Of a DNA stretch of 64,000 nucleotides, positions 7,096 through 42,173 are shown piece after piece. The stretch covers positions 800,001-864,000 of the forward strand of contig CAVQNT010000002.1 in the NCBI GenBank assembly GCA_963714275.1, in the 5' to 3' direction. Under the pieces are notes generated by a model that did no database searches, had not been told where the DNA came from, and saw nothing but the letters and a program-made list of their open reading frames with translations. The first letter of the stretch is position 1; each line of letters begins with the position of its first letter. The translations under genes were made by a program, and so were the position numbers. The stretch comes from Candidatus Bathyarchaeota archaeon (GTDB lineage: Archaea; Thermoproteota; Bathyarchaeia; Bathyarchaeales; DTEX01).

Positions 7096-7799
7096 CCCTT
7101 TCGTTTCTCCTCTAGTCGTTTTTTGAGGTCCTTTATCGAGTTTTCAAGCTGCGTTCTTCGAACCTCAATGGTGACATCACCCCTCGTTGCCTCAAGCACG
7201 TGTCGGGCAACGTCGCATTTCCTTCTGAGTCCCTGAACAACGATGTTGGCTTCATCGAGGTTAATCAACTCAACATATATTGTTTCCATGAGCTCAAGGT
7301 TTTTCTCAGCTTTCCCGACTTCGTTTCTCCTCAGGCAATCCAAAGTCTGGCGTCTGAGCTCCCCAACCACGTCAGCTAAGCCGAGAATATAGGCTGGCAA
7401 TGGAACGCCAATCTCGTTAATGTTTATGAAACGCCCTTCTTTAATCAGGTTAAGAAAAATTTGGGCTTCCGTATATTCCTCGAATGCTGCTTCAACAATT
7501 CCCATATACATGAGTTCAGGATAATTTGCTGTAATTGTAACTAATTTTCTGAACAGTTCCTTTGCTTCTCCAAGTGTTGCTTCGGCATCTTCGAGTTGCT
7601 GTTTGTGGACGTGGAAAATCGCTGTTTTCGACAATCTTGTGCATTTCCGCATAGCTGCCTGAACGTCCTGGCGGACAACGTCCTTCTTTGCCAATTCTTC
7701 CTGAATCTGTTTCAGAATGTTGTTTAGTGACATGGTTTTCACTTTTTTTATGGTACTTCCTTTATGATTTGACAAAGCGTTATATGTACAAATAGTCAT
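7092..7799 (-). CDS. Translin/Trax family protein (start likely ~7733)
   Basis: EEYTEA, YILGLADVVGELRR, LRRKCDVAR. Confidence 0.85.
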   Translation of the reverse strand: MTICTYNALSNHKGSTIKKVKTMSLNNILKQIQEELAKKDVVRQDVQAAMRKCTRLSKTAIFHVHKQQLEDAEATLGEAKELFRKLVTITANYPELMYMGIVEAAFEEYTEAQIFLNLIKEGRFININEIGVPLPAYILGLADVVGELRRQTLDCLRRNEVGKAEKNLELMETIYVELINLDEANIVVQGLRRKCDVARHVLEATRGDVTIEVRRTQLENSIKDLKKRLEEKRKG

Positions 7800-7901
7800 C
7801 CTACAATGGCATTTATCTTTTTTCTTATGTAAGCTCTTTTTTATAAAACTAAATCTGCTACTAAATGAAAGTAAAAAACAATTATTAACAAAAAAATGTT
7901 G

Positions 7902-8390
7902 TTACGTGATTTGTAGTATTTCCGAACCTTTTCTCACAGCAAACCTTATTCTTTCAGCGCATGCATAATCATGAATTTTAGCATAATACTCTTTTATTCC
8001 ATCTGCTGTCTTCAGATCCAGCTTTGTAAGTTCTCTACAGTTCATATAACTGAATTTATTTTTGAATTCCGCGACATATTTGTCAACCATGGTCCAAACA
8101 GGCTGCGGGCTTTGTTCCGAACTTGTTCTCCCATATTTCATACCTATCAACATGGCGATGCTTGAAACACAGCCACATAACAGCCCATTCAACGAGACAC
8201 CGGCACCAATACCTGTTCCTATCCGAGGAATAACCTCAGCTCCTTCACCAATGAAGCCTTTGAAGGCAAGCAGAATGCTTTCACAACAATTAAATGGTCT
8301 TCCAGTCGGAAAATTTTTAGGACGAGTACAGAAATATTCCACAGTCTTATTCCCAAGTTCCTGTGAGGTTGTCATTTTGTTTTCCTCCAT
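7902..8390 (-). CDS. C-GCAxxG-C-C family putative redox protein
   Basis: FNCCES, GAG...LCGC, F...NCREL, C..RI pattern. Confidence 0.8.
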   Translation of the reverse strand: MEENKMTTSQELGNKTVEYFCTRPKNFPTGRPFNCCESILLAFKGFIGEGAEVIPRIGTGIGAGVSLNGLLCGCVSSIAMLIGMKYGRTSSEQSPQPVWTMVDKYVAEFKNKFSYMNCRELTKLDLKTADGIKEYYAKIHDYACAERIRFAVRKGSEILQIT

Positions 8391-9909
8391 TTAAATTTTG
8401 CCTGTCCAGCAGTATAGGCAAATGTCTTCTTCTTTTAAGCCCTTGTTGTTTGGGGCTTCGACCACGGCTTTGACAAGGTCTTCTATAGTCTGGAACTTCA
8501 AGGTTGTGAAGCCGATCTTTTTCCTGATCTCCTCAACCATAGTCAGGTATTCCTGGCTTGTTGAATCCAAGTACTTGCTGATGTCCTCTTCGGTCCTGTC
8601 CATAGCCTTCCAAGTCGCTAAATCCTTAGTCTTGGTTGACAAGTCGTAGACGCATGGGAACATCTGCGGAGGCGAAGCAATCCTGCCGTGAATCTCTTTC
8701 GGACAATAAGGCATGATCTTTTCTCTCAGCAAATCCTGAAGCTGGGTACCCCTTCTTATCGAATCGTCGACTAAAATTATTCTCTTGTCTTGAATCATCT
8801 GAGGGTTAGGAACCTGCTTGAACCGAGCGATCAGATCCCTCTTTTCCTGGATTGGAGGAATGTAGCTTCGACCCCAACCAGGCGTGTACTTTACCAACGG
8901 TCGCCTCAAAGGAATCAACGACTTCAAGGCTTTCTTGACGGTTTCTTCGAGTCTGACTGGCATCAATTTCGCCTTGTTTGAACTGTTCCAACGCGCCATT
9001 GATTTTCTCCTTGGCGAGTTCCATCCTTCTTTTTGCATAACCGACTGAATGCGGAAATCCCGAGTCTGCTATGCCCAACACTATGTCGGCTTCTACTTCG
9101 TCTTTTTCAGCGAGGAACCCCCCGCACCTTTCCCTGACAACCTCAGCGTTCACTCCGTAATAGTCTGACGTTGGGAAGCCAAAGTAAACGTGCAGAAACG
9201 GACAAAACCTTTTCCTGGTTGACGCTTGTGCCCGTGTTTTGGCGCCTAACTCGTCTACGGAAATGATTTCGCGGTGTTCAAGAAACTTTACAACCTCGTA
9301 CCTTAAATTGGGAAACGCGGAAGTTTCGGAAGCTATGGCCCAATCGTTTCCTCTGTTTCCAAGGATAAGCGGGAAAGTATCGCCTGATATATAGATGCTT
9401 TTTTCGTTTTGGGACAGAAGCAGCAGAGAGATGGTTCCGTCGATTTTTTGGTACATGGCTTCGATTCCGTCGACGACGTTCTTTCCTCTGCTTATGAGCT
9501 CACCGATAATCTCGGTCTGGTTCGGAACCGTTTTGCCAGCTTTGATTCTTGAGTTTTTGAATGTGACGCCTTTCTCAATCAGTTCGCTATATAGTGCATC
9601 AGCGTTTCTGATTACGCCAGCAGTGCAGAGGGCGAAGGTTCCAATTTTCGATTCGAACTTGACTGGCTGTTCATCTTCGCTGTCGCTTATGACGCCGATG
9701 CCTAACGTGCCCTGAATCTTCTTGTATTCTTCCTGCATCACAGACTTGAACTGGCTGTTGCTGATGTCGAGAGAAACGAGCTTTATGTCGCCATCTGAAT
9801 AGGCTAAGCCAGCGGTTTCTGTTCCCAGATGCGAGTGATAGTCAACTCCGACGTAAAGGTCTCGGGCAAGATGGTTTTTTGTGACAACGCCGAACAGTCC
9901 GCCAAGCAT
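8391..9909 (-). CDS. purF: Amidophosphoribosyltransferase-like protein lacking the N-terminal Cys; frameshift near 8952
   Basis: DYHSHLG, ASETSAF, PRPP loop LVDDSIRRGTQL, Fe-S Cys motifs FCPF, FPC, CLYCW. Confidence 0.85.
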
Positions 9910-9975
9910 AATTTCACAGCCTTTGAGATAGATGCGTTAAGGAACGTGTATAAACAGTTTTTGCACACGTCTATG

Positions 9976-11022
9976 TTAATGAGCGAAAAAGAAAATTTTA
10001 TCTGTTATCGTGTCCGCCATTTTCTGAGTAGACGAGTTTCCACCCAAATCGTAGGTGCGGACTTTTCCTTCTTTCAGAACTTCCATCACGGCTTTTTCAA
10101 CTAAGCCCGCAGCCTCGGACTCGTTCAGGTAGTCAAGCATCATTTTCGCCGCGAGAATGGTGGCAATAGGATTAACAGTGTTTTTGCCCGCATACTTCGG
10201 CGCAGAACCGTGAACGGGTTCGAACATGCCGTAGCTGCTGCCTACGTTCGCTCCAGCTGCAAAGCCAAGCCCTCCTACGAGCTGGGCTGCCTCGTCCGAG
10301 AGGATGTCCCCAAAAAGGTTAGTTGTGACGATGACGTCGAACTTTTCTGGTTCTTTCACAAGCCTCATCGCCATCGCGTCAACGTGAACCTCGTCCACCG
10401 TTATCGAAGAAAATTTCTCTGCAACCTTCATCACAGCGGTGACGAAAATTCCGTCTGTCACACGCAAAATGTTCCTCTTGTGGACGCATGTTACGTGTTG
10501 CTTACGTTTTTGAGCCAGCTCGAACGCAAGTTTCGCTATTCTTTCAGAAGCCTGCTGAGTTACAATGCGTAAGGCAACTCCTTTTCCCGGCGCCACCGTG
10601 AACTCCTGTCCAGAGTAGAGGCCTTCAGTGTTTTCTCTGAGCACGATGAGGTCGATGTTTGGCTTGAGGGCTGGGACGCCTGGCAGGCTTTTACACGGTC
10701 TCACGTTGGCGTAGAGGTTGAAGGCTTTCCTAATCGTCACCGCAGCGCTTGGAGGCGCACCTGCTTCTTCGAGGGTCGTCATAGGTCCCTTCAGGCACGC
10801 GTCAGTCTGCCTCAGCATGTCAAAGGTCCTCTGCGGAACGTTGGTGCCGTGTTTTTCGATGCAGTTGAGGCCTGCTTCGCCGAACGTAAAAATGAGCCTC
10901 AGATTTTTTGTTGCCTTCTGAACGGCTTTCAAAACTTTTAGTGCGGCTTCTGTGACTTCGGGTCCGATTCCGTCTCCCGGCAACACGGCGATTCGGTGGG
11001 CTTTGCTCAACGGGTTTTTCAC
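9976..11022 (-). CDS. Isocitrate/isopropylmalate dehydrogenase family (LeuB/AksF-like)
   Basis: LPGDGIGPEV, LYANVRP, RENTEGLY, NLFGDILSD, FEPVHGSAP. Confidence 0.9.
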   Translation of the reverse strand: MKNPLSKAHRIAVLPGDGIGPEVTEAALKVLKAVQKATKNLRLIFTFGEAGLNCIEKHGTNVPQRTFDMLRQTDACLKGPMTTLEEAGAPPSAAVTIRKAFNLYANVRPCKSLPGVPALKPNIDLIVLRENTEGLYSGQEFTVAPGKGVALRIVTQQASERIAKLAFELAQKRKQHVTCVHKRNILRVTDGIFVTAVMKVAEKFSSITVDEVHVDAMAMRLVKEPEKFDVIVTTNLFGDILSDEAAQLVGGLGFAAGANVGSSYGMFEPVHGSAPKYAGKNTVNPIATILAAKMMLDYLNESEAAGLVEKAVMEVLKEGKVRTYDLGGNSSTQKMADTITDKIFFFAH

Positions 11023-14963: not shown

Positions 14964-18126
<3,163 letters not shown>

Positions 18127-38416: not shown

Positions 38417-39172
38417 CTATTCGACTTCTATTCTGGGCGCCAAGTAATAGACTAACGTGCCATCGTAGGTTTGTTTGAAGTCGAGGCGGATGGGCATGTC
38501 GTTCGAGAACTCGAGCGTCACAATGTCGGAGGTGGCAACCGCTGCCTTAACAATCTCCGAAAGGTAGCTCAAAGGAAATGTTGACTTCGAAGGTTCCGTT
38601 ACCTCAACAGACAACAGCGCGTCGCTGCCTTTTTTGAGTTCTATGCTTGCTCCCATGATGTCTCCTTTGGCGTTCATCGCCATGTTTTCGCCGTCGGTTT
38701 CCACGCGGACGTGGTCGCTTACTAGCGCAACGTCTTCGAGCGATTGGCGAAGCCCGTCTGTCGTTAAAGTAATCTTCGAGTTGAATGTGATTTTTGGTAA
38801 TCCCTGCTCTTCTTCGGTTGCCTCTAGCGTTGGCATCCTGAATGTGCGGATGTATTTTCCTTTAACCGTCATCACGAATTGTCCTGTGGTTTCGTCCAGA
38901 TAGAGCTCGACGGCTTCGTCTTTTCCTGCCCTTTTGAGGAGCTTCAGCAGCTCGCCCAAGTTCAGGCAAATTTTGGTTTCCTGGTCCGAAACATACTCGT
39001 CGAAGGCTGTTTTCTGCATAGTAAAGTCGACCATGGCTACGCGTGAAGGGTCCATGGCTCTGAGTTTGATTCCTTCTGTGCCTACGACGAACGTGCCTTC
39101 GTCAATAAGTGTCGAGATAGCTGTGACCGCGTCTCTCAGAAGCTTCGCGTCAGACATCCTAATTTTGAACAT
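38417..39172 (-). CDS. pcn: PCNA sliding clamp
   Basis: AMDPSRVAMV, YLAPRIE. Confidence 0.97.
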   Translation of the reverse strand: MFKIRMSDAKLLRDAVTAISTLIDEGTFVVGTEGIKLRAMDPSRVAMVDFTMQKTAFDEYVSDQETKICLNLGELLKLLKRAGKDEAVELYLDETTGQFVMTVKGKYIRTFRMPTLEATEEEQGLPKITFNSKITLTTDGLRQSLEDVALVSDHVRVETDGENMAMNAKGDIMGASIELKKGSDALLSVEVTEPSKSTFPLSYLSEIVKAAVATSDIVTLEFSNDMPIRLDFKQTYDGTLVYYLAPRIEVE

Positions 39173-39290: not shown

Positions 39291-39401
39291 TTAACTAGCG
39301 ATTATTGATTTAATTATTAAACTATGTTTATGAGTATTCTCTGAATGTGTAGTTGCATTTTGTTTTGGCTCATTAGTATTAGCTTCTGGAATACTTGACA
39401 T
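39291..39401 (-). CDS. int(N): N-terminal fragment of the partitioned integrase
   Basis: ATG at 39401 after purine-rich GGGGAAAAAGAGAGA; MSSIPEANTNEPK-QNATTHSENTHK reads through att in the same frame as int(C). Confidence 0.75.
   Translation of the reverse strand: MSSIPEANTNEPKQNATTHSENTHKHSLIIKSIIAS
39326..39363 (-). repeat. att site distal to tfs (copy of the tfs 3' end)
   Basis: GTTTATGAGTATTCTCTGAATGTGTAGTTGCATTTTGT, identical to 41833-41870. Confidence 0.95.
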
Positions 39402-39561
39402 TCTCTCTTTTTCCCCTTTTTAGCGTGTATATCTCTATCAAACTCCTTTAAATATGTAGCATCGTGTGAGCTGACTTTACTCTAAGCTTTGATTCTAAGA
39501 GTAGAATTTCTGCAAGTCTCTAAGAGTAGAGGCTCTAACTCTAACTAGTGAAGTTAGCTAG

Positions 39562-39819
39562 TTAGTCTCTCATTACTTTTTCTCCACTTTTAAAGGAAAT
39601 AATTGTTGAATCGTCCTCCCAATCTATGTTTCTTTCTCCCATTAATGCAACTCTTACAATAAAGCCCGGAGGTAAAGGCATATGTTCAAAATAAATTAAA
39701 TCGAATCCTTCCTTTCTAAGTCTAGGCATCAATTGATTTGATATATATAGAGAAACAAGTCTTTCGGTTATTCGAGCTTTCCAATTATTTAGTTCGGAAG
39801 GACGAAACGAATATTTCAT
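39562..39819 (-). CDS. Element-borne hypothetical protein, possibly truncated
   Basis: 85-aa ORF with GGGGAG upstream inside the low-GC element. Confidence 0.5.
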   Translation of the reverse strand: MKYSFRPSELNNWKARITERLVSLYISNQLMPRLRKEGFDLIYFEHMPLPPGFIVRVALMGERNIDWEDDSTIISFKSGEKVMRD

Positions 39820-40000
39820 TTCTTCTCCCTTATTGTTTATATAGAAATCACTATAAAAATTTTAGTGGCTAGCTAGCTTGATATCAAGCGGGACAGAAAG
39901 GGCTTTTACCTTCCACAAAAGGCAGTATATGGAAAGAAAACACCGAAAAAGTATTAGACATTTTTATGTCTCGTTCAGTATAGCTGAATTACTCACCACT

Positions 40001-40699
40001 CTAGCTAGTCCATTCTAGTGTTAAATTCCATCCTGTTAAAGCAGGTCCATCAAAGTAAACTTTTGAATCTACACTTATCCAAGATTCTCCGTTTATTGTG
40101 CCTAATGTTATGTATGTATCGTTTGCCACAACTCCACCACTTTGATAGAGTATTACATGAATCTTAGAATTATAAGCAGTATTTGTTCCGACATTGCAGA
40201 CGTATCCATAGACTTTAAGATACAGTTTGTCCCAAAACGGTCCATTGTCATCACCCTTCAAATTCACACCAATAAGTTTTGGTGTTATTAAAGTATTAAT
40301 TTGATTCTGCAAGTTTGTAATTTGAGTAGTCAATAAAGAGACTTGTGTATTTAGATCGGATATTTGGTTCTGTAGATTTGTTATTTGCGAATTCAATTGA
40401 TTATTCTGATCCGTGAGTACCAATATTTGCGAATTCAGTGAATCAATTTGAGTATTATAATATGTAATGTTTTCATCAAGCCATGTTTGTAAATAGCTTA
40501 GTAGAGTTTCATTCCGATCCAGCCAACTTTGTAGTTGATTCTTTTGGTTAGTAAGAATTTGAATTTGAAAATCTATACTTTGAATGTAACTATCTTTTCT
40601 GTTCACTGCTACTGCCATTCCTAATAAACCGACTGCTAAAATTATGCACAGTATTACTAGCCCGACGACTTTTCTACTTACAACGTTCTTTTCACTCAT
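40001..40699 (-). CDS. Element cargo: membrane-anchored coiled-coil protein with a C-terminal beta-sandwich-like domain
   Basis: N-terminal TM, heptad repeats (LNSQI, ITNLQNQI), C-terminal VYGYVCNVG; GGGGG upstream. Confidence 0.7.
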   Translation of the reverse strand: MSEKNVVSRKVVGLVILCIILAVGLLGMAVAVNRKDSYIQSIDFQIQILTNQKNQLQSWLDRNETLLSYLQTWLDENITYYNTQIDSLNSQILVLTDQNNQLNSQITNLQNQISDLNTQVSLLTTQITNLQNQINTLITPKLIGVNLKGDDNGPFWDKLYLKVYGYVCNVGTNTAYNSKIHVILYQSGGVVANDTYITLGTINGESWISVDSKVYFDGPALTGWNLTLEWTS

Positions 40700-41152
40700 T
40701 TTATTCCCCCCTTTATATTCGTTATAAAATAAACTCGTATGGCAAAGTGAATAGACCGATTACTATATCTTTTGTTGAAAAGGACATAAATAAAAATTTG
40801 TATTAACAAAGAAGTGTTTTGTGAAAAACTAATACTAATCAGAAAACTGGACTACCAGACAGTAGTGACTAGCATTGAAGCTCAGCTACATGATATGTAC
40901 TCTTCATGCACACAGTTCTCTATGAAGAAAAAATTCTAAGAGTAGAATTAAGTCCTAAGAGCTAGCAAGTCTCTAGAACCTGAGAAGCTAGCTGACTTGA
41001 CCCAAGGTCTAAGAATTTAATTCTATGCATTGAAAAATCATAGTTCAATAGCAACTAAACTGGCTCGTACCTTGTTAACAGCTTCTTTATCTACACCAAT
41101 TTTTTCAAGCAGTTTGAGCACATTTTTACTGTCTGTTATCTTGCTTGCTGAG

Positions 41153-41870
41153 CTAGTACAGCATTGAAGCATAGTAGTGTCTTAAGTCGTAGAGTCTTAT
41201 TCTCTTAAGCTCTGAGTCATGCATCTTCTTAGCTAAGCTAGTTCTCAGTCTTTCAAAGGTGTTGCTGATTGTGGAAGACTTTAGGAAGATTCTGTCGTTT
41301 AAGTTGAAGCTGTGTCTCTTTACATGCTCAACTAACATACATTGAGTGTGAGGTTTTAGCTTTAATATTCTAGGGTTGCCGTACTTTGCTGAGTATACTG
41401 AGACTGTTCCTTTCTCTAAGTCAATGTCTCTGAGTGTGAGGTTTGCTACTTCTATTGGTCTGAGTCCACATTCTTTGATGATTGAATAGATTAGTGCATA
41501 CTTTCTTGAAGCATGTCCAAGCATAAGGTTTACTTTCTCTTCTTTTGGGACTACAAGAATCTTGTGGTCTCTTCTGTACTTTGGCTTATTCCAAGCTAAA
41601 CCATTGTACTTGACATAGTGCTGATAGAAGTCGCATAAGTTTCCTTTGTAGCTACTTGCCCATTTTCCTCTAGCTATGAATATTGAGACATCGCTTGAAT
41701 TATCCAAGTTCATTCTATTAGCTAAGAACATTAATGCCCTTAGCATTGTCTCAAGGTAGGCTTTGGAGTATCCTAGTTTCTCTAGCTCAAAACAGACTTT
41801 GATTATTTTGCCCTTAGATTCGAATGCACATAGTTTATGAGTATTCTCTGAATGTGTAGTTGCATTTTGT
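41153..41870 (-). pseudogene. int(C): tyrosine recombinase, truncated before the LGH motif and catalytic Tyr
   Basis: CGLRPIEV (box I Arg), SAKYG (Lys), RLYDLRHYYAS (box II), then stop; no LGH...Y in any downstream frame. Confidence 0.85.
41833..41870 (-). repeat. att site within the tfs 3' end
   Basis: Encodes TKCNYTFREYS* of TFS; identical to 39326-39363. Confidence 0.95.
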
Positions 41871-42173
41871 GCATCTGAAGAATTGGGTTGAGGATTCGTC
41901 TGCTCCCCTTGTTTGTACTTGCCAGACGTATGCGGCGTTGTTTCCGCATTTTGGGCATTCAATCGTGGTCGTTGGAAGCGTCTGAAGCTTCTGTTCCTTC
42001 TTGCCGATGACTACTAGATGGTCTCGAGGCTTGGGAGCTGCAACCTTCTGCGTGCAAACGTCAGATTCCACTGACTTCCTATAACTGCATTTAGGACAGA
42101 CAAGATAACAGCCTTTCCCGTCCTTTTTCCGTTTAGCCACGAGACGGGTCTCGCACTTTGGACAAAATTCCAT
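41835..42173 (-). CDS. tfs: Transcription factor S (TFS)
   Basis: MEFCPKC...CPKC; CPKCGN...QTRGADESSTQFFRCTKC with the catalytic DE pair. Confidence 0.95.
   Translation of the reverse strand: MEFCPKCETRLVAKRKKDGKGCYLVCPKCSYRKSVESDVCTQKVAAPKPRDHLVVIGKKEQKLQTLPTTTIECPKCGNNAAYVWQVQTRGADESSTQFFRCTKCNYTFREYS

Follow-up and report, generated by a model that had tools for sequence, protein, structure and literature searches.

A probable decayed integrative element at the 3' end of tfs in Bathyarchaeia, and a family of Xer-like integrases with the attachment site in their own first codons

In the genome of a Candidatus Bathyarchaeota archaeon, the last codons of tfs, the gene for transcription factor S, occur twice, once at the end of the gene itself and once about 2.5 kb away on the side of pcn, the gene for PCNA, and a tyrosine recombinase reading frame runs straight through the first of these copies. 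The locus lies in a stretch of 64,000 nucleotides (nt) from contig CAVQNT010000002.1 (hereafter the window), and it raises the question of what kind of element reads the end of a host gene as part of its own integrase, and of what happens to that integrase upon integration. The comparative analysis reported here indicates that window positions 39326-41870 very probably represent the decayed remains of a cryptic mobile element integrated in a Bathyarchaeia lineage, with a tyrosine integrase that recombines at the 3' end of tfs. In the wider family to which this integrase belongs, the attachment site (att) lies within the first codons of the integrase gene.

The insert between tfs and pcn and related loci

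A repeat search identified a single family of direct repeats at the locus, consisting of two copies of 38 nt that are 100% identical (39326-39363 and 41833-41870) and lie 2,507 bp apart; by our own arithmetic, the chance expectation for such a pair in 7.5 kb is about 4e-16. The repeat copies bracket an insert located between tfs and pcn, with a GC content of 0.31-0.39 versus 0.46-0.55 in the flanks. The features of the locus are as follows.

41835-42173, minus strand: tfs (transcription factor S), 112 amino acids (aa), intact; Pfam Zn_ribbon_TFIIS (PF01096) at 1.4e-17, model positions 1-39 of 39
41833-41870: proximal att copy, formed by the final 11 tfs codons, the stop and 2 nt; in the +1 frame it reads as integrase residues QNATTHSENTHK
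41153-41869, minus strand: int(C), the integrase body from the att-encoded peptide on; TAG after LRHYYASMLY, catalytic-tyrosine motif gone
40700-41152: stretch without a long open reading frame (ORF; 41-45 aa only), the expected place of the integrase 3' end; one 12-mer TCTAAGAGTAGA at 40935-40946
40001-40699, minus strand: cargo ORF of 232 aa, with an N-terminal hydrophobic segment and a coiled coil
39562-39819, minus strand: cargo ORF of 85 aa; tblastn identity of 50% over 44 aa to another tfs-integrated element (L089)
39494-39505 and 39519-39530, plus strand: pair of exact copies of the 12-mer TCTAAGAGTAGA, candidate protein-binding repeats
39402-39452, minus strand: presumed integrase promoter and leader; a TATA-like TTTAAA (39447-39452; motif match in AT-rich sequence) precedes the ATG by 51 nt, and the leader is purine-rich
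39326-39363: distal att copy, identical to the proximal copy
39291-39401, minus strand: int(N), an ORF of 36 codons, with the ATG at 39401, 13 leader codons, 12 att-encoded codons, 11 unrelated codons and a stop
38417-39172, minus strand: pcn (PCNA), with PCNA_N at 2e-18 and PCNA_C at 3.3e-15; native downstream neighbour of tfs in relatives with an empty site

The tyrosine recombinase frame (41153-41962, minus strand; PF00589 at 8.8e-09) reads the proximal att copy as QNATTHSENTHK on its way into the insert, and the same 12 att-encoded residues are read in the same frame at both att copies, in int(C) and in int(N). An earlier annotation of this DNA made from the letters alone (the sequence-only reading) had described the perfect repeat, the low-GC insert of 2.5 kb, the tfs end in one repeat copy, the recombinase frame through the proximal att and, at the distal copy, an unlisted in-frame ATG at 39401 behind a purine-rich leader; all of these were found as described. 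The tfs gene is present in a single copy in the genome (one match), and its C-terminal residues are those of relatives with empty sites. Its translation shows an ADE motif and CxxC pairs, which correspond to the acidic loop and the zinc ribbon of TFIIS-type transcript cleavage factors, and together with the Pfam match these features place the protein in the TFIIS zinc-ribbon family.

A protein search with the integrase returned 159 relatives at E <=0.001 among 306 candidates, and the surrounding DNA was fetched for 80 genome loci and 80 metagenome loci. The N-termini of homologues of 317-328 aa resembled the alternate-frame reading of the tfs 3' region in the window, which suggested that these homologues also sit behind tfs. 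Among the genome loci 8 of 80, and among the metagenome loci 17 of 80, indeed have tfs immediately upstream of the integrase and co-oriented with it; since one of the metagenome loci (L129) is the same contig as L023, this leaves 24 distinct tfs-linked loci besides the window. The tfs-linked loci are exactly those with the integrases closest to the one in the window: their integrases are about 55% or more identical to the family, no locus with an integrase at 51% identity or less has tfs, and every metagenome locus with a close integrase and available upstream sequence has tfs in front. The pcn gene was located 2-8 kb downstream in nine of these loci. The homologues retain the att-encoded peptide, and the expectation of the sequence-only reading that there would be a family of elements whose integrase overprints tfs is borne out by 24 other Bathyarchaeia loci with the integrase beside tfs.

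The tfs loci of 29 relatives were also retrieved, and in 15 of them, including that of a member of the same genus (L174), pcn follows 76-342 nt after tfs with nothing in between, as anticipated for an empty site. An integrase or an integrase remnant is present in 6 of the 29, and the others end too early or carry other inserts. Simulated excision of the window element yields a sequence that is collinear with L174 across the junction (263/341 identities in tfs, 100/152 in the spacer and 54/72 at the start of pcn). The C-terminus of TFS has an identical protein sequence in occupied and empty sites, with occupied sites ending in TAC TCA TAA and many empty ones in TAC AGC TAA or TAC AGC TAG, a change that is synonymous (Ser) for TFS. 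In the integrase frame this change converts ..NTHK into ..NTAK, and both versions are found among the integrases, matching their respective att. The reading of att in two frames thus turns changes that are silent in tfs into amino-acid replacements in the integrase leader.

A different situation was observed in the closest sister genome (G002), where a distinct insert of 2.0 kb with a GC content of 0.33 occupies the tfs-pcn site (L199; contig G002:C3, 441-2471) between genes that are both 96% identical to the tfs and pcn of the window. This insert encodes ORFs of 179 and 217 aa and is devoid of an integrase, of a second att and of similarity to any fetched locus. Among the tfs-linked loci, L009 and L012 present tandem arrays at tfs: the former has two att-integrase units in succession (7431-10804), and in the latter (16457-16650) an older integrase with a decayed N-terminal part is joined to the leader and att of another element. 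The insert between tfs and pcn at L015 (identical to L180, G016:C4; 1366-4553) is only some 2.1 kb long, carries a full-length integrase without interruption and shows no detectable second att; it represents either a stranded integrase or a very small remnant. Three family integrases were encountered on contigs binned as a Christensenellaceae bacterium (L069), an Aenigmatarchaeota archaeon (L051) and a Heimdallarchaeota archaeon (L073), a taxonomy that points to mis-binning or transfer.

State of the window element

The integrase ORF of the window ends at 41153, at position 141 of the 172 positions of the PF00589 model and before the catalytic tyrosine, a feature that the sequence-only reading had missed. 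A relative with 92% identity (P0002) continues for about 70 aa further, through a conserved LGH...YTHL stretch, and the window copy lacks about 80 C-terminal residues; the DNA homology to 12 other elements breaks off abruptly at 41154-41157. Recoding or readthrough of the TAG at 41153 was considered and discarded, as a TAA follows eight codons later, and so was a frameshift, since the other two frames of 40900-41200 hold nothing integrase-like. The lack of a continuation in any frame, combined with the abrupt end of homology, therefore indicates that the 3' end of the integrase gene, including the catalytic tyrosine, was deleted or replaced. Contigs of three runs, each from a different study, contain the truncated version at about 98-99% identity; it is a fossil fixed in the population rather than a sequencing error. 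The window element is consequently defective and no longer able to move by itself: the split architecture put forward in the sequence-only reading stands.

The remaining content of the element gives few indications of function. The cargo ORF of 232 aa yielded only weak coiled-coil-type Pfam and PHROG matches below the cut-offs, and among the fetched loci it has no convincing relative, the one weak match being to L024 (34% over 86 aa, E 5.8e-4). Pfam and PHROG searches with the ORF of 85 aa returned no match. In another element of the family (L092), the same two databases detected only an AN1 zinc finger and a weak helix-turn-helix domain in the cargo. The 12-mer TCTAAGAGTAGA has three exact matches in the window, all on the plus strand and inside the element near its two ends, with looser copies around them, and these sites could be bound by a regulator or a replication protein.

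Given this state of decay, the insert might by now be a domesticated, fixed island whose remaining genes serve the host. The missing catalytic end of the integrase, the occurrence of the same truncated version in three runs and the presence in G002 of a different insert of 2 kb, without integrase, at the same place are all in keeping with this possibility, which concerns only the present state of the insert and is compatible with its proposed origin as a mobile element. The two att copies are nonetheless still identical at 38 of 38 positions, which argues for a recent event, and the cargo ORFs lack any known function, so that we consider domestication rather unlikely.

The attachment site within the integrase gene

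In addition to the window, a second copy of the tfs end was identified downstream of the integrase in six tfs-linked loci (L014, 37 bp; L012, 33 bp; L010, 39/42; L094, 38/38; L092; L099), with a spacing of 4.5-8.7 kb. In all seven elements, including that of the window, an ATG is found 11-20 codons upstream of the distal att, in the integrase frame and open to the end of att; neither of the other two frames passes the same test in any element (0/7 each). Applied to all internal positions of the same elements, the test has a background rate of 4056/37341 (10.9%), giving a binomial P of 1.8e-7, a generous value since the elements are related, although their leader peptides are unalike. Furthermore, all seven ATGs are preceded by a TATA-like hexamer 44-54 nt before the start and by a purine-rich, GGAGG-like leader. 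The two parts of the gene, int(N) and int(C), hence lie at opposite ends of the element in the window and in L010, L012, L014, L092, L094 and L099.

The situation at the tfs end of the integrated elements is the reverse. ATG, GTG and TTG codons are absent from the 30 codons after the start of att in 17 of 23 integrated copies, where the first ATG is codon 38-42 or does not occur; the homologues retain the att-encoded peptide, the opposite of what the sequence-only reading had named as grounds for abandoning it, namely homologues that start downstream of att and lack this peptide. An in-frame ATG upstream of att is missing in 14 of the 23, and in two copies a stop is present two codons upstream. 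These data place attP within the integrase ORF, the architecture that defines type I or suicidal integrases, a class reportedly introduced in the classification of She et al.

The AlphaFold model of the full-length protein has a mean predicted local distance difference test (pLDDT) score of 87.3, with values below 50 at residues 1-4 and 9-31 and a first helix at residues 37-49, which implies that translation initiated beyond att would remove part of the core-binding domain. The att-encoded residues (21-32 in the family protein P0012) fall wholly within the N-terminal region with pLDDT below 50. As judged from this model, integration would split off no folded domain: the lost piece would consist of the promoter, the start codon and a stretch of about 13 codons that belongs to a tail predicted to be disordered, and the integrase presumably tolerates a leader dictated by another gene because that leader is such a tail.

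The existence of the joined gene is supported by a comparison with an independently predicted protein. Circularisation in silico of the L092 element (4,528 bp) generated an ORF of 327 aa that is identical to P0012, predicted independently from another source and another assembly, at 326 of 327 positions and at all of the first 40 residues. The joined form of the gene therefore exists, as the sequence-only reading had foreseen for the product of excision, and the protein called on the L092 contig itself (P0125) has the N-terminus given by the alternate frame of tfs. The contig encoding P0012 measures 4,669 nt, that is, 4,528 plus 141, and by the arithmetic of these lengths alone a circular contig with a k-mer overlap of 141 bases would look the same. 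Two further proteins (P0016 and P0129) present a leader unrelated to tfs before the att peptide and may constitute a second example of the joined form.

Several results weigh against an integrase that is split by its own integration. Four of the eight genome loci (L011, L013, L015 and L023) show no second att within 12 mismatches of 42, and the leader peptides are dissimilar in sequence among elements. The joined form is represented by one protein record, and a tandem array could yield the same ORF. A scan of viral contigs with the family alignment produced 24 pattern matches, none of them a relative, and in the contigs of four runs (X1-X4) the element is nowhere bypassed by a direct junction; these contigs end at the att copies, and none of them bridges one. 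Moreover, in 9 of the 23 integrated copies the alternate frame of tfs does offer an in-frame ATG, so that the integrase body might still be translated after integration, and among the 25 tfs-linked copies (24 loci plus the window) 18 retain an unbroken integrase frame when integrated, which would be unexpected for dead pseudogenes unless the integrations were recent.

The last two of these findings speak for a classical integrase of the pNOB8 or lambda type, with an unsplit gene that starts either past att or in the alternate frame of tfs, att merely abutting it. Gene callers predicted such N-termini, and the integrase frame is open for 2-57 codons upstream of att inside tfs. The upstream ATGs nevertheless appear to be by-products of tfs codons (TAT-GTx for Tyr-Val and GAT-GAx for Asp-Glu), and the majority of copies without them, the two with a stop just upstream, the first downstream ATG that is either absent or so placed that its use would delete helix 1, the start with TATA-like box and leader at the far end of every one of the seven elements and the existence of the joined ORF all argue against an unsplit gene, which we accordingly regard as very unlikely. 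An origin of the repeat in assembly error, or in local duplication of the tfs end unrelated to site-specific recombination, finds support in the lack of any contig in the four runs that bridges an att copy, but is extremely improbable in view of the recurrence of the architecture in 24 other loci from many independent assemblies, megabase contigs included, of cargo with matches of about 98-99% identity among the contigs of three runs, each from its own study, of a recombinase gene that abuts the repeat and of empty sites that align collinearly.

The same runs provide a further observation on the tfs end. Loose contig ends at 41832-41841 and 41873 reveal other sequences joined to att in the same samples. 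Contig depth summed over 41841-42007, the 3' end of tfs, rises 5- to 25-fold in all four runs, and many contigs diverge at 41832-41841 or at 41873. The rise in depth together with the divergence at the edges of att therefore suggests that many organisms or elements in these samples share att with different neighbours.

Enzyme family, targets and proposed mechanism

Domain searches with four full-length members of the family (P0012, P0003, P0016 and P0039), allowing E-values up to 10, matched PF00589 as the sole recombinase model, at 6e-23 to 2e-18. The best match (6.3e-23) covers model positions 7-168 of 172 and establishes these proteins, of which the window copy is an incomplete version, as tyrosine recombinases. 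A GH pair and the tyrosine of a YTHL motif are invariant in the C-terminal region of family members, and we take them to belong to the R..HxxR..Y catalytic motif. The closest sequences in the PDB are those of the archaeal XerA (5hxy, 9.4e-17; 4a8e, 1.1e-16), followed by IntI4, XerH and XerD, and Foldseek likewise ranked XerA first (3e-12), ahead of IntI4, Tn1549 Int, lambda Int and Cre. SSV1 Int, used as a positive control, matched PF16795 (1.5e-61) and also PF07935, was absent from the PDB sequence matches and from Foldseek ranks 1-50, and obtained a probability of 5% in an hhalign comparison with the family profile. The enzyme is hence Xer-like and belongs to PF00589, with no match to PF16795, the hallmark of the SSV/pTN3/pT26-2 superfamily. 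The proposal of an SSV-type split integrase in the sequence-only reading consequently holds for the architecture, with att in the ORF and an in-frame ATG in seven of seven elements, but not for the protein family.

The more distant members of the family are located directly after tRNA genes, on the same strand, at 20 loci (tRNA genes for Ala, Gln, Cys, Leu, Ser and Asn). Eighteen of these were tested, and seven showed an exact repeat of the tRNA 3' end downstream, in every case with an in-frame ATG 8-27 codons before the distal copy. The placement of att in the first codons is thus a property of the whole family, and tfs is the target of one clade. A quick IQ-TREE maximum likelihood tree with midpoint root was inferred for 95 of the 160 loci, leaving out those whose best high-scoring segment pair did not span query positions <=60 to >=320, those with several such pairs or with stops, and the truncated copy of the window. 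In this tree the tfs-linked integrases form a single clade of 14 rows (Shimodaira-Hasegawa-like approximate likelihood ratio test, 99) among clades found beside tRNA-Cys, tRNA-Gln and tRNA-Ala genes, an arrangement that does not fix the direction of the switch between tRNA and tfs.

For 63 rows of the tree ARAGORN reported no tRNA; Rfam searches of 20 such loci detected one RNase P RNA and two tRNAs, and Pfam searches with six upstream ORFs of tRNA-less loci returned only a PEBP protein located 160 nt away. At the RNase P locus (L166, 1-245), the archaeal RNase P RNA (110 bits) ends at 214 and a family integrase starts at 245 on the same strand, and one clade may use this RNA gene as its att site. 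The genome of the window (G000) has paralogues of the integrase at no fewer than six other loci, with 31-45% identity to P0002 (C2:307341, C2:430911, C2:557836, C4:14894, C6:369529 and C10:22050-22825), and an orphan C-terminal integrase fragment of 66 aa (C6:448004-448201). ARAGORN identified a tRNA at only one of the six paralogue loci (tRNA-Pro, minus strand; L004).

With XerA the family shares the two-domain core-binding and catalytic fold as well as the best sequence and structure match, whereas XerA is a chromosomal dif resolvase whose site is not in its own gene, and the present proteins are element-borne and carry an extra C-terminal alpha/beta module (model residues 292-327). Bacterial phages that provide a substitute 3' end for a protein-coding gene, such as the icd-integrating lambdoids, carry the last codons of their target; unlike in the present family, the end that they supply is not known to double as integrase coding sequence. 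Compared with SSV-type integrases, the present family splits off no folded part, its tfs-linked clade targets a co-oriented protein gene that overlaps in another frame, and its hosts come, according to sample labels, from sediment, wetland and peat metagenomes and not from hyperthermophiles; SSV1 Int itself belongs to the PF16795 family and has its annotated integration site at codons ~64-78, versus ~14-25 here.

In the parts covered here of the 2021 review of archaeal tyrosine recombinases by Badel, Da Cunha and Oberto (PMC8371274) and of Badel et al. 2020 (PMC7253208), self-disrupting integrases are described for SSV1, pTN3 and pT26-2 only, and all listed att sites are tRNA genes; the former presents them as a single event within one superfamily, PF16795, and as a device of hyperthermophilic archaea (PMC8371274). 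As portrayed in the same parts, these systems resemble the present family in having attP in the integrase ORF, int(N) and int(C) at the element ends, a translated att and tandem remnants at one site. In Thaumarchaeota (Krupovic et al. 2019, PMC6563490), 14 of 68 integrated elements sit in the 3'-distal part of a protein gene, and, in the portion of that article considered, they are similar in their tyrosine recombinase, the restored 3' end of a protein gene, their tandem arrays and the cryptic nature of many of them; they differ in that the same portion, supplements aside, describes no att inside an integrase and names a range of targets without tfs, one of them an unnamed Zn-finger protein. 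In the literature surveyed, with most subscription journals and supplements outside its scope, we found no integration into tfs, no suicidal integrase outside the SSV superfamily and none in Bathyarchaeia; a published self-splitting integrase that targets a protein gene or falls outside the SSV superfamily was likewise not found.

Taken together, the evidence favours an integrase gene that is split by the integration of its own element. The data establish the anatomy of the element, its recurrence, the empty sites and the existence of the joined ORF, and from them we infer that the enzyme would recombine, that its promoter would be used, that integration would silence the gene and that excision would occur in trans. 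In the free circle, the integrase ATG would lie behind its own promoter and leader and be followed by about 13 codons, by attP, consisting of the last 11 tfs codons and the stop read one base out of frame, and by the Xer-like two-domain recombinase. Exchange between attP and attB, of the ordinary tyrosine recombinase type, would take place within the 38 bp. Integration would rebuild tfs with the 3' end borne by the element and leave the integrase body directly behind tfs, deprived of promoter and start, which together with about 13 codons would be moved 2.5 kb away to the pcn side, so that the integrase promoter would face pcn. The resulting layout would be of the type I (suicidal) kind seen in SSV1, pTN3 and pT26-2, with another recombinase family and a protein-gene target. 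Excision would require an intact integrase in trans, or a gene reconstituted at a tandem junction; tandem arrangements are present in L009 and L012.

On a broader and more tentative view, which we deem possible but somewhat short of probable, self-splitting integrases arose a second time, independently of SSV, pTN3 and pT26-2, in Xer-like recombinases of non-thermophilic Bathyarchaeia, one clade of which moved from tRNA genes to a protein gene, with integration acting as a promoter swap. If so, the att would be constrained in three ways, as recombination site, as zinc-ribbon tail of TFS and as leader of the integrase, and with the integrase body behind tfs and its promoter directed toward pcn, reactivation of the element could be coupled to the expression of two host information-processing genes. 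The family contradicts or extends the points noted above from the part of PMC8371274 covered here, by its other recombinase family, its sediment, wetland and peat hosts and, in one clade, its protein-coding target. What makes this fossil copy in the window of interest is the family that it revealed. That family offers a natural experiment in overlapping coding, in which the same 36 bases encode the end of a zinc ribbon and, one base off, the leader of an integrase, and in which a switch of Ser codon in the host becomes visible as His or Ala in the integrase. Furthermore, the system is small, with elements of 4.5 kb, an enzyme of 327 aa and a site of 38 bp, which makes it testable in vitro and a candidate for a compact site-specific integration module.

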